A model generated the notes under the pieces. It saw only the letters and a list, made by a program, of their open reading frames with translations, ran no database searches and was not told the DNA's origin. The position numbers and the translations under genes are program-made. Positions 29,138 to 36,208 of a stretch of 64,000 nt of DNA are shown here, one piece after another. The DNA is from Escherichia coli (GTDB lineage: Bacteria; Pseudomonadota; Gammaproteobacteria; Enterobacterales; Enterobacteriaceae). The stretch lies in the NCBI RefSeq assembly GCF_051903065.1, contig NZ_CP178438.1, one strand, 5' to 3'. Position 1 is the first letter of the stretch, and every line of letters begins with the position of its first letter.

Positions 29138-30277
29138 TTACCAGTTATGAATGTCGCTGGCTGTATCCGTCATGTAACGGACACCGCTAATAGTTGGCAG
29201 CAACTGATTGATCAGACGGTTCCAGCGGGAAACCGGGGCGGTGGTGACATACACCACGTCATAAGGTTGCAGGCGGAATTCTGTCGCCATCACCAGCGAC
29301 GTGGCATCGGACATATCCAGCTGGTAGATATTGGCAATCTTGCCGTTACGCCCGCCCTCGCCTTTCAGCGGACGAATGACAAAGATGCCGCTGGCGTTGG
29401 AGGTGGTCATGTCGATGCCTTCAGCATTGCCCAGGGCTTCAGTCAGGGTCATGCCGCTAAAGTCCATTTTCAGGGTGCTCTGTTTCTTCACTTCACCCAT
29501 CACAAATACTTTCAGATCATCATTACGTGGCACGTAGAGAATATCGCCGGGGTAAAGCAGGCGATTCTGGTTGAGGTCGCCGTTTTGCATCAGCGCCTGC
29601 AAAGAAATGCGCTCTTCACGACCATTGTGTGTTAGCACCACGTTGCGCCAGTCAGCGGTGTCGGTCAGGCCACCTGCGGCGTTGATGGCATCGAGAATGG
29701 TCAGTGGTACGTTGGTAATCGCCTGTTGACCGGATTTATTCACCTGGCCGGAGATATAGGCTTTTTGCGAGCGGAAGGCGGCGATATTAACGTCCACCTG
29801 CGGGTCAGCGATGTACGTCGCTAAGCGCCCGGTAATATCACTGCGGATTTCAGCGAGCGTTTTCCCCACGACGTGAACCTTGCCGATATACGGGTAGAAC
29901 ATGGTGCCGTCAGGCTGTACCCAGTTGCCGGTGTCGCTGGAACTGCGGTACTGACCAGCTGGCGTGGTGAGTTCCGGGTGATCCCAGACGGTGACATTAA
30001 GAACGTCCCCCGGCCCGACGCGATACTGGTAATTCGCGATCTCGCTTTCCAGCGTCATATTGGGGCGCGCTACATTCGGGCGTGGGCGTAATTGGTCAAT
30101 CAGGCGCGGGGTCAGCGGATACACATTCACCATTTTGTCGAGATCGAAATCAGCGTCCTGCTGTTTGATGACGTCTTTGCCCATCGTCGACATATTGCTG
30201 CCCGGAAGTACTGTGCAACCGCTTATCAAGGTTACTGACACCAATAATGGCATCAATTTCATTTTGGATTTCATCAT
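29138..30277 (-). CDS. wza: Outer-membrane polysaccharide export lipoprotein Wza
   Basis: 379-aa ORF with lipoprotein signal (LISGCTV); first gene of the wca operon. Confidence 0.92.
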
Positions 30278-30454
30278 TGTTTATTTATCACTTTGGCAGA
30301 GTAATTATCCTGTGCACTATTAATAGCAATGTCGCAATGCACATTTACCTTGCAGTTAATTGAATAAAAATTTAACTGGCATCAGTCCTAAAAAAATTGA
30401 TTTCATCCGCAGGCTATTGACAGAATAATTCAGACTGGCTTTCAGGCATCCAGA

Positions 30455-30466
30455 CACGCTACCGCC
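30455..30466 (-). promoter_or_regulatory. ops element in the JUMPstart of the colanic-acid operon leader
   Basis: Plus strand cacgctaccgcc is the reverse complement of GGCGGTAGCGTG, followed by cctggctttttagctacc JUMPstart-like sequence, about 180 bp upstream of wza. Confidence 0.75.
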
Positions 30467-30678
30467 CCTGGCTTTTTAGCTACCAATACACTGATTTAGC
30501 TTAATTTTTAAAACCCTCTCAACATACAGTCGTTGATGAGAAAGGGTTATTGCGGAAATTAACTTCCGAATATAAGGTGACATTATGGTAATTGAATATT
30601 GGCTCTCCAATAATGCAGGAGGAAGTGTTACAGCTAACGGAATAGCAGGCAAGGTAACAATTCGGCAATTGGCTATTT

Positions 30679-30693
30679 TTAAGAATTATATTA
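30679..30693. promoter_or_regulatory. Candidate RcsAB box of the wza (cps) promoter
   Basis: taagaattatatta resembles the RcsAB box consensus (TaAGaatatTCctA), about 400 bp upstream of wza; match is approximate. Confidence 0.35.
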
Positions 30694-30934
30694 AGTGTCA
30701 TTCAATATGGTTTTTAGGAGTTTCTTTAGGTTGACAATATTTAATATTGCGTCTCCACATGCGATATTTCTTAAATAATGTTTTATTATTACCACTTTTA
30801 ATTCAGGGATAATGTGAGGTTATTACCCTCAAATAATATGAGATAAATAGTGCTACAACATTGCATTTTTGCCCCGATTTATCCATGATCGAATTGTGAC
30901 ATTTGTCATACAACGAATAGGTTTTGTACTTACT

Positions 30935-32518
30935 ATGGAATGGATTGCCGATCCGTCTATCTGGGCCGGGTTAATCACGCTGATTGTGATCGAACTGGTC
31001 CTCGGCATTGATAACCTAGTCTTTATTGCCATCCTCGCCGAAAAACTACCGCCGAAGCAGCGCGACCGCGCACGGGTTACCGGGCTGTTGCTGGCGATGT
31101 TAATGCGCCTGTTACTGCTGGCGTCAATCTCCTGGCTGGTCACCCTGACTCAACCGCTATTCAGCTTTCGCTCGTTTACCTTTAGCGCCCGCGACTTAAT
31201 CATGCTGTTTGGTGGTTTCTTCTTGTTGTTCAAAGCCACGATGGAGCTGAACGAACGGCTGGAAGGGAAAGACAGCAATAACCCCACGCAACGCAAAGGT
31301 GCGAAGTTCTGGGGCGTGGTGACACAAATTGTGGTACTGGACGCCATCTTCTCACTCGACTCGGTGATTACAGCCGTCGGGATGGTCGACCATTTACTGG
31401 TCATGATGGCCGCCGTGGTTATCGCTATCAGCCTGATGTTGATGGCCAGCAAGCCGTTAACGCAATTTGTTAACAGTCACCCGACCATCGTTATTCTCTG
31501 CTTAAGCTTCCTGTTGATGATTGGCTTTAGCCTGGTGGCGGAAGGTTTCGGCTTCGTCATTCCGAAAGGCTACCTGTACGCTGCCATTGGTTTCTCGGTG
31601 ATGATCGAGGCGCTCAATCAGTTGGCTATCTTTAACCGGCGACGTTTTCTTTCCGCTAACCAGACGCTGCGCCAGCGGACTACCGAAGCGGTAATGCGCC
31701 TGCTTAGCGGGCAAAAAGAAGATGCGGAACTGGACGCCGAAACCGCGTCCATGCTGGTGGATCATGGTAACCAGCAGATCTTTAATCCGCAGGAACGGCG
31801 GATGATTGAGCGGGTACTTAATCTTAACCAGCGTACCGTCAGCAGCATTATGACGTCGCGCCACGATATTGAGCATATCGATCTCAACGCGCCGGAAGAA
31901 GAAATCCGCCAGTTGCTGGAGCGAAATCAGCATACGCGGCTGGTGGTTACCGACGGTGATGACGCAGAAGATTTGCTCGGTGTTGTTCACGTTATCGACC
32001 TGCTACAACAGTCTCTGCGCGGCGAACCGCTCAACCTGCGGGTGTTGATTCGCCAGCCGCTGGTGTTCCCGGAAACCTTGCCGTTGTTACCTGCCCTGGA
32101 GCAGTTCCGTAATGCCCGCACGCACTTTGCTTTTGTGGTGGATGAGTTTGGCTCGGTGGAAGGGATTGTGACATTAAGTGACGTCACTGAAACCATTGCC
32201 GGTAACTTACCGAACGAAGTGGAAGAGATCGACGCCCGCCATGATATTCAGAAGAATGCGGACGGTTCCTGGACGGCGAATGGTCATATGCCGCTGGAAG
32301 ATCTGGTGCAATATGTGCCGCTGCCGCTGGATGAAAAACGTGAATATCACACCATTGCCGGGCTGTTGATGGAGTATTTGCAGCGTATTCCAAAACCTGG
32401 CGAAGAAGTTCAGGTAGGGGATTATTTGCTTAAAACGTTGCAGGTAGAAAGCCATCGCGTGCAGAAGGTGCAGATTATACCGCTGCGTAAGGATGGCGAG
32501 ATGGAGTACGAGGTGTGA
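30935..32518 (+). CDS. yegH: Inner-membrane protein YegH (TerC-family membrane domain plus CBS/CorC-type domains)
   Basis: Track ORF is 549 aa; likely start [13 protein letters not shown]... (527 aa). Confidence 0.88.
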
Positions 32519-32780
32519 TGGTATCGGTCATTTTACCCGATGCTGCGTAACGCCTTATAACTTCAGCAATGAAGCGTTGTCTGTGGTACATGGACATTAC
32601 AGCGGGGGGGTGGGTCCGGCTGTAAATCGCCGAATCGTTTCCTGTGGCCGGGGCAGCCCACATGGATGTGGGCTGAGGGCGCGTTTTACAGGGATAATGA
32701 GATGGACGCTCCAGATTTTACGGTATCAAAGTACCAGACTGGATCGTTGCAATACGTCCTGAAAAATTAGGAGCGTCCAC

Positions 32781-33806
32781 ATGAAAGTATCAACTCTTGG
32801 TATCGACCTGGCAAAGAACGTTTTTCAGCTTCATGGTGTCGATCATGAAGGCCATACTATTTTGCGTAAAAAGCTCACCCGGGCTAAGTTTGTTCAGTTT
32901 GTGATTCAACTGGAACCTTGTCTGATTGGCATGGAAGCCTGCTCATCCAGTCATTATTTTGCGCGATTATTCACCCGCTATGGTCATGAGGTAAAACTCA
33001 TACCTCCGCAGTATGTGAAGCCTTATGTGAAAACGAACAAGACGGATGCAGCAGATGCTGAAGCAATCTGCGAAGCGGTAACCCGTCCGAATATGCGTTT
33101 TGTTCAGATAAAAAACGAAGAGCAGCAGGCCGTTTTAGCGTTACACACTGAACGGGGAATACTTATCCGTGAGCGGATTGCCTGTGCCAATAGTTTAAGA
33201 GCCACACTTGCTGAGTTTGGTATTACGATTGCGGCCGGACAAAGCCATTTAACCCGTGAGCTGCCAGCCATTCTGGAGGATAGCGAAAATGGTTTATCTC
33301 CCTTTGTCAGAACCAGCATCTACAGACAGTCTAAACATATCCGGGAACTTGAAGAACAAGTTAAACAGGTAGAAGAAGCTCTGGCCTCCTGGTATAGAAC
33401 GCAGGAAGCCTGCCAGAGAATGGCCAAAATCCCGGGGGTTGGCATGCTAACGGCCACTTATGTGGTAGCAGCAGTGGGTAATGCCCGACAATTCAGTACC
33501 GCAAAGCAGTTCGCTTCATGGCTGGGGCTGACACCAAAGGAACATTCCAGCGGCGGGAAACAGCAACTGGGAGGGATCAGCAAACGTGGAGATGGATATT
33601 TCCGATACCTGCTGGTTCACGGCGCACGCGCACTTACCGCCTGGGTCAACCGAAACGGCGCGGTTGAGGAGAATTCCTGGCTTCAGGGACTCCTTGAGCG
33701 GAAGCACTACAATGTAGCTGTTGTCGCCATGGCGGCAAAAACAGCGAGGATCATGTGGTCAATGTTGTCACACAATACTGAATATCAACCTCGGCAGCTC
33801 GCCTGA
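32781..33806 (+). CDS. IS110-family transposase/recombinase (DEDD N-terminal domain plus Transposase_20 C-terminal domain)
   Basis: 341-aa ORF: N-terminal MKVSTLGIDLAKNVFQLHGVD and C-terminal IPGVGMLTA...GLTPKEHSSGGKQQLGGISKRGDGYFR motifs characteristic of IS110-family recombinases. Confidence 0.85.
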   Translation: MKVSTLGIDLAKNVFQLHGVDHEGHTILRKKLTRAKFVQFVIQLEPCLIGMEACSSSHYFARLFTRYGHEVKLIPPQYVKPYVKTNKTDAADAEAICEAVTRPNMRFVQIKNEEQQAVLALHTERGILIRERIACANSLRATLAEFGITIAAGQSHLTRELPAILEDSENGLSPFVRTSIYRQSKHIRELEEQVKQVEEALASWYRTQEACQRMAKIPGVGMLTATYVVAAVGNARQFSTAKQFASWLGLTPKEHSSGGKQQLGGISKRGDGYFRYLLVHGARALTAWVNRNGAVEENSWLQGLLERKHYNVAVVAMAAKTARIMWSMLSHNTEYQPRQLA

Positions 33807-33839
33807 CACAAGGTCAGTCAATCTGACGAGGTGCTGAAA

Positions 33840-34060
33840 AAAAGTTAACGTCCTGGTAGGTGCAGGTGACTTCAGAAGATGGCAAAACAGGTAAGACCGC
33901 AGGCAGGATACACCGAGAGGTAACAAGGGCAAGTTAGCCCGTAGAGGATGATTGGTACCTGCCTGGCGGATTTCATCATGGTTCGGGATAAAAATCCCAT
34001 CAGAAACCGGATATATGGCTGCACCTACCCGTTTTATTACATAACTGAAGAAAGCATTGC
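33840..34060 (+). ncRNA. Candidate IS110-family guide RNA (bridge/seek-type) in the 3-prime non-coding flank
   Basis: No ORF; long-range complementary 11-mers ggtaggtgcag (33855-33865) and ctgcacctacc (34021-34031) plus internal helices; inferred by analogy with IS1111-group elements. Speculative. Confidence 0.3.
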
Positions 34061-34297
34061 ATTCCGGGAGCGTCCATATATGTTACCTCGTGCCCGTACC
34101 CGATAGCCGCAAGGAATAAGATGAGGGAACCGCGCCAGCGGCGATTTACCGCCGGGAGCCCGGGTTGCCAGGGTGGTGGCGATTGAGCCACCCTGGCACG
34201 TTCACCGGCTTGAGCCTTCCATAGTAGCGAGGAACATCAAGTGAACGGAACAGCCTTCGATCTTACATATTCAGAATATAATGGTGCCGCCGCGAAC

Positions 34298-34336
34298 GCC
34301 TGATGCGACGCTTTACGCGTCTTATCAGGCCTACAG
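34298..34336. repeat. REP element
   Basis: gcctgatgcgacgctttacgcgtcttatcaggcctac just downstream of the asmA stop. Confidence 0.85.
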
Positions 34337-34354
34337 GACAGCTCACCAGGTAAC

Positions 34355-36208
34355 CTACATCTTCTCCAGCAACTTCTTCACATCTTTGCCATTGCGGGAA
34401 TCTTTATTCCGCTCGGCCCAGTCATTCAGGCGACGTTTCGCTTCGTCCTGTAGATGTTTGCGCAGCAGCTGGTCCACTTGCAGGCTGTAATTGAGTTGCT
34501 GCCAGTTGCCATAAACCCGCAGCGGTACTGGCGTTTCTTTGAGGAAATCAATCAGTTTACTTTCCCCGTTCCAGCCACCCACGACCCGAATATCAAACTG
34601 GGTGTCGCAGGTTTGATCTGCCAGATTCAACATGCCTTCCCCTGTCAACGCCAGCACAGGCGATTGACCTTGCATGTCGTTTAACGTCACGACGCCATCC
34701 TTCAACGTCAAATCGGTGGTAAAGCGGTCAAGACGCGTTACGTTATCGAAGTTTTCAGCGGCCTTCACATCACCACCATTACGTTCTACCGCTTGCTGAA
34801 TCATCTGCTGGAAGTTCATCCCTTGCATGCGCGTATCGGCCATTTCGACATGCGCCGTCCCCTGCCAGTTGTGGCGGAATGCGTCGGCATCTATGTCAGC
34901 ACCGGAGAAATCACCAGCCAGTGACATCTTTCCGGTCAACGAAATCGGATAGTTAAACGCCTTCAGAATGGTGCCAATCTCAACGTTTTCCAGCCGTGGC
35001 TGAAAGTTTATCCGCGGATTTATTGATGTCGCGTCCAGCGTGCCCGGCAGTGAAACCTGTCCACCGTTAAGTTTGCCCTGCAGTTGAGTAATTTCCAGCA
35101 AACCCGACTTGTTGGTCATTTGCGTGGCAACATCTGTAAAATTCATTCCGCGCCAGCGCACGTTACTGGCCTGCAACAAAATATCAGCCGTAAAGCCTTG
35201 CAGTCCCTGATAGGCCGGTTCATCAATACGCGAAGAAATAACCGGGCGCGGCAACGTTGATTGGCTCTGCCCCTGCTGCGCGGCACCGTTTTCACCATTC
35301 GCGGTTTCATTAAGCGGGATGAGGTTGTCAAGATTCAGTTGCGGGAATTGCAGTCTCAGCTGCCATTCCGGTTTCTCTGTCAGCGTGACCTGTGCTTGCC
35401 CGCTCAGCGTACTATCATTGGCGGTCAAACTAATTTGGTTAAATGAAAGGCGTTTATGTGACTCCTGCCACTGGGCCAGGAAACTCCCCTGCCCCTGAAT
35501 ACCTTGTTTTGGTAAATCGGCACCCTGCAACTGCCAGTTAATTTGTTCAATAGCCGCCGTTAAATCATGCGGATAATCAGAAGCATCTACCGTACCGTTA
35601 AGGGATATCGTGAGATCGCGCTGATCGCGATTAACCCGCCCGGAGAACTCAAATGAGCCACGATGTTGGGGATCTTGTTCCATTTGCAGGCGGATATTGC
35701 GGATTGTCACCTGCTCGTCATCTTCATGCTGGAACACCAGAACGCTGTCCGCCACCTTAAGACTGGATATATCAAACGACCATCCGCGATCGTCTGACAG
35801 ATCCGGCAAGGTATTGTCGCGCGGTGCAACCGGAGCGTCTTCACTGCGCACCGCTTCCGTCTGCGGCGTCAGTTGGATCACTGCCCCTTTTAGCATCACC
35901 TGCTTAACGCTCAGTTGATGACTCAGTAGTGGTAAAAGCGCCACGTCCAGACGCATGTTATCGGCGCGAACCAGTGGCTGGCTTGCGCCCTGGGCGGTGA
36001 GAGACATTCGCCCGGAGAGGATACTAAGCTGCGGCCAGACGTGCCAACGCAGTGGCCCGTCGAGCTGCAATTGATAACCGCTACGTGCAGCAACTTGCTT
36101 GACCATATAGTCGCGGAAATCATTCGGATTCACCAGCAACACTAACGCAGATAACCCGGCCACCAGCACGACCAGGAGTATCATCAGCGTCGTCAGAAAT
36201 CGTCTCAT
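34355..36208 (-). CDS. asmA: Outer-membrane assembly protein AsmA
   Basis: 617-aa ORF with N-terminal membrane anchor; position and length as in K-12. Confidence 0.9.
   Translation of the reverse strand: MRRFLTTLMILLVVLVAGLSALVLLVNPNDFRDYMVKQVAARSGYQLQLDGPLRWHVWPQLSILSGRMSLTAQGASQPLVRADNMRLDVALLPLLSHQLSVKQVMLKGAVIQLTPQTEAVRSEDAPVAPRDNTLPDLSDDRGWSFDISSLKVADSVLVFQHEDDEQVTIRNIRLQMEQDPQHRGSFEFSGRVNRDQRDLTISLNGTVDASDYPHDLTAAIEQINWQLQGADLPKQGIQGQGSFLAQWQESHKRLSFNQISLTANDSTLSGQAQVTLTEKPEWQLRLQFPQLNLDNLIPLNETANGENGAAQQGQSQSTLPRPVISSRIDEPAYQGLQGFTADILLQASNVRWRGMNFTDVATQMTNKSGLLEITQLQGKLNGGQVSLPGTLDATSINPRINFQPRLENVEIGTILKAFNYPISLTGKMSLAGDFSGADIDADAFRHNWQGTAHVEMADTRMQGMNFQQMIQQAVERNGGDVKAAENFDNVTRLDRFTTDLTLKDGVVTLNDMQGQSPVLALTGEGMLNLADQTCDTQFDIRVVGGWNGESKLIDFLKETPVPLRVYGNWQQLNYSLQVDQLLRKHLQDEAKRRLNDWAERNKDSRNGKDVKKLLEKM

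Follow-up and report, generated by a model that had tools for sequence, protein, structure and literature searches.

A 49-codon open reading frame between wza and yegH of Escherichia coli is very probably a chance reading of the opposite strand of the wza promoter

In Escherichia coli K-12, the promoter of wza and the colanic acid (cps) operon is reportedly activated by RcsAB, as described, it is said, by Stout in 1996 and by Wehland and Bernhard in 2000. Our analysis of a window of 64,000 nucleotides (the whole stretch of E. coli DNA under study) places a 49-codon open reading frame (ORF) at this same location: the locus shares with the K-12 promoter the JUMPstart/ops element, the transcription start site (TSS) 340 nt from the wza ATG, the −35/−10 spacing and the matches to the RcsAB consensus, all of which are conserved across the Enterobacteriaceae. 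No DNA difference from the K-12 promoter sets this locus apart; the ORF is a reading of the opposite strand of that promoter.

Two other kinds of described sequence provide comparisons for the ORF. Validated E. coli small proteins have experimentally supported translation, and many are single transmembrane helices. The ORF is like those of ≤50 aa (the Storz-laboratory type, NC_000913.3) in size (49 aa), in its intergenic location and in having an ATG with a Shine-Dalgarno (SD) sequence; it is unlike them in that its frame is not conserved beyond Escherichia, nonsense alleles are common, the peptide has no hydrophobic helix and the ORF is not annotated in MG1655. It also resembles the spurious or orphan 'hypothetical proteins' of AT-rich intergenic DNA, that is, it occurs in a single genus, belongs to no family, has non-genic codons, evolves at a non-coding rate and is called because of its ATG and SD; unlike typical spurious calls, however, parts of it are strongly conserved across genera. 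The apparent cross-genus conservation of these parts is explained by the putative promoter elements on the opposite strand (vide infra).

The initial annotation had reported a 49-codon ATG frame with a strong SD in the wza-yegH intergenic region. Its coordinates and translation (MVIEYWLSNNAGGSVTANGIAGKVTIRQLAIFKNYIKCHSIWFLGVSLG) are borne out (Table 1), and its description of the SD (TAAGGTGA) is fair: the core, AGGTGA at 30575-30580, lies 4 nt 5' of the ATG and is complementary at all 6 bases to the 3' end of 16S rRNA. The predicted duplex (−8.3 kcal/mol) ranks among the top 5.5% for the 2164 ATGs of the window and is stronger than that of ~89% of the first ATGs of its long ORFs. The ORF is, then, intact, with a start codon and a ribosome binding site. 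The E. coli wza-yegH spacer in which it lies is 658 nt long and 34% G+C; the ORF is on the same strand as yegH and ends 200 nt from the yegH ATG. PGAP calls precisely this ORF in many E. coli genomes, under the name 'hypothetical protein' WP_162829205.1 (variants of the product are WP_162863342.1 and WP_165835430.1), and gene callers other than PGAP also annotate it; in K-12 MG1655, BLR(DE3) and other strains it is unannotated. The ORF is, therefore, already in the RefSeq annotation, by prediction alone.

Table 1. Positions in the window of the 49-codon ORF, the neighboring genes and the observed or putative elements of the spacer.
Feature	Position	Strand	Remarks
wza CDS	29138-30277	−	Outer-membrane polysaccharide export protein; first gene of the colanic acid operon
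JUMPstart element with ops	30455-30493	−	wza 5' UTR; ops GGCGGTAGCGTG at 30455-30466
SD-like taaggtga	30573-30580	+	Opposite strand is +37 to +44 of the wza 5' UTR
49-codon ATG ORF	30585-30734	+	TGA stop at 30732-30734; judged a chance ORF
wza (cps operon) TSS, K-12	30616	−	340 nt 5' of the wza ATG; transferred via the K-12 sequence
wza core promoter (putative)	30624-30652	−	Opposite ORF codons 14-23
Candidate −10, AACACT	30624-30629	−	Ends 7 nt before the reported wza TSS
Candidate extended −10, TG	30631-30632	−	Within the 17-nt −35/−10 spacer
Candidate −35, TTGCCT	30647-30652	−	Hexamer read from the sequence
Polymorphic site	30666	+	C, CAA (Gln28), open; T, TAA, ORF cut to 27 codons
RcsAB-box-like site A	30680-30693	either	10/14 to consensus; −64 to −77 of the wza TSS
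RcsAB-box-like site B	30715-30728	−	10/14 to consensus, TCCTA half perfect; −99 to −112 of the wza TSS
TTGACA	30731-30736		Invariant in all enterobacteria compared; contains the ORF stop
yegH CDS	30935-32518	+	TerC-family membrane protein

The position of the wza promoter follows from its transcribed leader. The JUMPstart element with ops (Rfam RF01707, 57.3 bits with a gathering score of 35, E = 2.3e-12) is in that leader upstream of wza and on the wza strand, so the promoter must lie at higher coordinates, where the ORF sits. In agreement with this, Supplementary Table S5 of PMC10469882 (sheet 3, EHEC vs MG1655 TSSs) gives the MG1655 entry 'wza -50, 340'; relative to this start, the ORF spans +32 to −118. 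A sigma-70 −35/−10 pair can be assigned at the mapped start at the level of sequence, and it is plausible that TTGCCT/TG-n-AACACT, with the hexamers read as in Table 1, is a weak sigma-70 promoter of wza with an extended −10. The core-promoter block is kept in 32 non-Escherichia sequences, with the consensus GAATTGTTGCAGCTAA..AAT..CAGGCAAGGTAACA. A promoter scan also matched a different pair on the minus strand (−35 TGGAGA at 30609, −10 CATAAT ending at 30582); this candidate for the wza promoter was rejected because it is absent outside Escherichia and misfits the reported TSS, and the idea that the ORF ATG is merely the complement of the CATAAT box was dropped along with it in favor of TTGCCT/AACACT.

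Upstream of the putative core promoter, two sites match the RcsAB consensus (TaAGaatatTCctA; PMC4325325) at 10 of 14 positions: site A (TAAGAATTATATTA), within a deeply conserved block (TTTTAAGAtTaATATTAAG, 30677-30695), and site B (TAAAGAAACTCCTA on the wza strand), within the conserved block 30712-30736. The number of consensus matches in the spacer (three vs 1.6 ± 1.4 in shuffles) is not above chance for AT-rich DNA. The two 10/14 matches in conserved blocks support the proposal that the ORF overlaps a putative RcsAB box of the divergent wza promoter; the overlap is larger than proposed, that is, the ORF covers the whole wza promoter and not only the putative box. Site B (30715-30728) may be the wza RcsAB box that was reportedly defined experimentally by Wehland and Bernhard in 2000; a literature search with the exact wza box sequences returned nothing relevant.

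Additional conserved sequences are found on both sides of the promoter. TTGACA is located at −115 to −120 of the wza TSS, and TGCGATATtTCttAA (30760-30774) is also conserved across genera of the Enterobacteriaceae; either could be a further regulator site, for the wza or the yegH promoter. In the wza 5' UTR, stretches at 30278-30330, 30350-30395 and 30414-30429 are conserved across genera besides JUMPstart (e.g., CTaTTGACAGAATAAT just 3' of ops), which suggests additional leader elements. On the ORF strand no known RNA element was found: apart from JUMPstart, which belongs to the wza strand, an Rfam search of 30150-31050 at E ≤ 1 gave just two microRNA matches, both meaningless.

For the comparison across genera we scanned one genome per species with Wza; this yielded 80 loci, including those of Escherichia, Citrobacter, Salmonella, Enterobacter, Lelliottia, Kosakonia, Phytobacter, Trabulsiella and others, most of which keep a homologous spacer. 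Thirty-eight spacers, 32 of them non-Escherichia, were aligned. Within the ORF, only four blocks are ≥80% identical to the window across the 32 non-Escherichia sequences: 30622-30637 and 30641-30660 coincide with the putative −10 and −35, 30677-30695 with site A, and 30712-30736 with site B and TTGACA. The DNA between the blocks varies freely, with 1-nt indels in many genera, and outside Escherichia the region of the ATG, the SD and the first ~10 codons cannot be aligned. The homologous frame lacks any ATG, GTG or TTG in 15 of the 32 non-Escherichia sequences; an ATG is present in only six, and their N-termini are unrelated and their stop positions differ. At the first, second and third codon positions, mean identity to the window is 0.60, 0.62 and 0.69, that is, the third position is the most conserved, which in this alignment is the reverse of a coding pattern. 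Such a pattern of conservation marks DNA to which proteins bind at a fixed spacing, and not a coding sequence. Conservation of the reading frame across the Enterobacteriaceae had been proposed as a check of the ORF; in relatives that keep the locus, frame, start and stop are not conserved, and neither a conserved frame nor a conserved start was found outside Escherichia.

Within E. coli, the spacer is present in 4831 of 5426 complete genomes. We typed codon 28 with 55-mers centered on 30666, so that every 28-base megablast seed includes that base; 4815 of the 4831 genomes could be typed, and the open allele (C) is present in 3575 and the nonsense allele (T; TAA28) in 1240. The TAA28 share is, therefore, ~26%, and the full-length frame is found in ~74% of complete E. 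coli genomes. Carriers of TAA28 include K-12 MG1655 and B (BLR(DE3)). The allele occurs on two haplotypes, with Ile24 (K-12, B and RM9088) and with Val24 (strain 7_56_38A; L087); its presence on two backgrounds implies, from the haplotypes, recombination or recurrent mutation at the site. Elsewhere in the genus the ORF is interrupted or its SD is impaired: one divergent Escherichia sequence (L004) carries both a stop (TAA) at codon 40 and a degraded SD (AAGATGG, −4.1 kcal/mol), another (L097) has TAG at codon 6, and in a third (L096) the SD is lost (AAGTTAG). Three divergent Escherichia sequences, that of E. whittamii and two others, have the full-length frame; in E. whittamii and L094 the 49 codons are retained with residues 38-43 replaced, in the spacer between two of the promoter blocks. 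The initial annotation had proposed that disruption of the frame in close relatives, or a missing ribosome footprint, would count against a gene; the TAA28 (1240 of 4815), TAA40 (L004) and TAG6 (L097) alleles disrupt the frame.

The substitutions within Escherichia provide no sign of purifying selection on a protein. In codons 2-49 we counted 41 distinct base changes over 18 haplotypes, distributed 12/19/10 by codon position; four are synonymous, a share of 10%, where uniform mutation would give 23% (P = 0.03 for a number this low). The ORF also diverges as much as the non-coding DNA that flanks it: identity to E. whittamii is 137/150 in the ORF vs 284/305 and 183/201 in the flanks, and the share of variable sites inside and outside the ORF is 4.0% and 5.9% in the E. 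coli sample and 14.0% and 14.8% in all Escherichia. Among the database variants of the 'protein' are some extended by loss of the stop, some with frameshifts and some fused to inserted DNA.

The length of the ORF is not beyond chance expectation. We shuffled the 658-nt spacer 2000 times with its dinucleotides preserved: 46% of the shuffles had an ATG ORF of 49 codons or more on either strand, and the median longest ORF was 47 codons. An ORF at least as long with an SD at least as strong was found in 1.65% of shuffles (for this single spacer). The E. coli genome has several hundred kilobases of intergenic DNA. With 1.65% per spacer, chance would roughly predict a handful to a dozen ORFs of such length and SD per genome. 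Two longer ORFs are present on the minus strand over the same DNA, one of 58 aa from a TTG (30476-30652) and one of 60 aa from an ATG (30519-30701) that begins upstream of the wza TSS; both look like chance and show how readily the AT-rich spacer stays open.

The codon usage of the ORF is also non-genic: its score (−0.26 bits/codon) is below that of every 49-codon window of the 32 long ORFs (mean 0.44), and its GC3 is 0.24 vs 0.58 in those 32 long ORFs of the window. No hydrophobic membrane-helix segment was found in the peptide (best 19-residue Kyte-Doolittle mean, 0.87). A single-sequence AlphaFold2 model is one long helix with a pLDDT of 66.8 and a pTM of 0.32, which is uninformative either way. 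No Pfam or NCBIfam family matches the product, even at E ≤ 10. A word-indexed protein search gave 23 clusters of unnamed proteins, every one from E. coli or Shigella; in this search and in an exhaustive phmmer search, all full-length relatives are from E. coli or Shigella.

With strong confidence, then, we interpret the ORF as a frame that is open by accident, antisense to the Rcs-controlled wza (colanic acid, cps) promoter, and non-functional as a gene. The position of the ORF relative to the mapped TSS, the pattern of its conservation, its polymorphic stops and its missing coding signatures are observed; we infer that no protein is made from it, or only traces without a selected function. 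In the proposed mechanism, the DNA of the ORF would work on the opposite strand, as the wza sigma-70 core promoter followed upstream by the two RcsAB-like activator sites and the TTGACA block. These elements would be held constant by selection on capsule regulation and would happen to carry no stop in the ORF frame. Next to the wza TSS, on its downstream side, where the DNA is poorly conserved, the Escherichia lineage would have gained an ATG preceded by AGGTGA; the gained ATG and SD would have closed a 49-codon ORF, which ab initio callers and PGAP then call. The initial annotation had left the choice between a small protein and a chance ORF in AT-rich regulatory DNA; the latter stands, and the former is disfavored by the polymorphic stops and by the lack of a conserved frame outside Escherichia.

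Three other explanations were weighed against an accidental frame. The ORF could be a young, Escherichia-restricted proto-gene for a microprotein that originated de novo opposite the cps promoter, with a weakly expressed plus-strand transcript as its template and about one quarter of E. coli doing without it. Its ATG and strong SD (−8.3 kcal/mol) at a workable spacing, the joint chance of length and SD in the spacer (1.65%), the intact frame in 3575 complete E. coli genomes and some other Escherichia lineages, and the PGAP annotation are what a proto-gene would have. However, such a gene would have to be reconciled with three independent premature stops and two SD losses within Escherichia, with the absence of purifying selection (4/41 changes synonymous, no third-position excess), with non-genic codon usage, with a peptide that has no hydrophobic helix (maximum 19-residue mean, 0.87) and a structure model of low confidence (pLDDT 66.8, pTM 0.32), and with plus-strand transcription: a promoter scan of 30200-31000 found no sigma-70-like promoter on that strand, and the mapped plus-strand TSSs are all downstream of the ORF. 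Also, neither the peptide, nor its DNA, nor the K-12 coordinates 213755x matched in the searchable supplements of the small-ORF/Ribo-seq studies covered (Hücker 2017, EHEC Sakai; Fesenko 2024; Stringer 2021 preprint; ids PMC5597208 and PMC11188072), a weak negative; the 'yegh' matches in these supplements are chance strings within other peptides. Beyond the start context, the microprotein has no positive support, and we regard it as improbable. We would give slightly less credence to the specific version in which the proto-gene is polymorphic, translated at a low level in the ~74% of E. coli with the full-length frame and silenced by a nonsense SNP in K-12 and B; if this version were true, the K-12 small-protein screens would never have seen the product because the SNP silences the ORF in that strain.

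The ORF could instead act in cis, as an upstream ORF or leader of yegH or as a translated antisense transcript that crosses the wza promoter and modulates capsule expression by transcriptional interference. Its position is what such an element would have: on the yegH strand, 200 nt before yegH, and directly over the wza promoter. The yegH TSSs in the accessible part of Table S5 of PMC10469882 are, however, past the stop of the ORF, at 30775-30896 of the window (in K-12, 39 nt before the yegH ATG, and in EHEC, 39-160 nt before it); no terminator- or attenuator-like hairpin was detected in 30200-31000, which is also where no plus-strand promoter was found; start, SD and frame are not conserved in genera that keep wza, yegH and their promoters; and nonsense alleles are common. 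(The searchable text of the MG1655 Cappable-seq supplement has no entries near 21374xx-21378xx.) With the mapped plus-strand starts lying beyond the ORF, a cis-regulatory role is less likely than the microprotein, and we consider it highly improbable. Finally, the ORF could be what is left of a larger gene, e.g., a piece of a cadherin-repeat adhesin: in the exhaustive phmmer search, cadherin-repeat proteins of 1400-4600 aa (P0024-P0047), each with 8-22 matched stretches, reach E-values as low as 1e-28, and a single repeat, with the cadherin motif V.Y.LS.DAGG.F.ID..TG.VTV, is identical to ORF residues 3-26 at 9 of 24 positions. But the 1e-28 values arise because 8-22 weak matches to near-identical tandem repeats are summed; the single repeat scores 26 bits with a pairwise E of 9e-5, which is meaningless against 1.8 billion proteins. 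Moreover, the ORF does not match Pfam Cadherin (PF00028) at E ≤ 10, the match spans only 24 of the ~93 positions of the Pfam profile, it is the conserved wza −10/−35 DNA that encodes the matching residues, and no remnants of flanking cadherin reading frame were seen in the related genomes compared; this explanation is effectively refuted. The use of phmmer with a short peptide against giant tandem-repeat proteins is a trap for homology searches with small ORFs.

With the ORF read as an accidental frame, its biological weight is small because the real feature, the Rcs-controlled colanic acid promoter, is already known. Its importance is for annotation: the probably spurious WP_162829205.1 and its variants are propagated in thousands of E. 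coli RefSeq genomes, and the partial conservation of the ORF across genera could be mistaken for constraint at the level of the protein. Should the ORF be translated, it would be a neat case of a polymorphic de novo gene that overlaps a promoter.

Several observations were made on the yegH side of the spacer. Published PhoB (TGTCACAATTCGATCATG) and CRP (TATGAcaaatgTCACA) sites in the spacer map to 30884-30912 (PMC10294691, PMC12871828); they overlap each other in the yegH promoter, and PhoB binding there is reported without a change in expression (PMC10294691, PMC12871828). A link of these sites to the ORF was considered and rejected, since they are outside it. An IS1 hot spot is located at ~30864: in strain 1448 (L093 701-1398) an IS1 is inserted between the ORF and yegH at about this position, and in strain KE51 (L098 2288-2985) an IS1 at the same place bounds a deletion that takes out colanic acid genes, from wza through a truncated glycosyltransferase gene beside wcaM. 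Insertions here remove or uncouple the capsule promoter, and some genomes lack the ORF region by an IS1-bounded deletion. Downstream of yegH, ~260 nt 3' of its stop, the window encodes an IS110-family RNA-guided transposase of 341 aa (32781-33806, plus strand; NCBIfam NF033542, 358 bits); no Rfam family, whether for a bridge or guide RNA or for any other, reached its gathering score in 32400-34400. In strain KE51 asmA follows yegH, and the IS110-family ORF in the window precedes that position.
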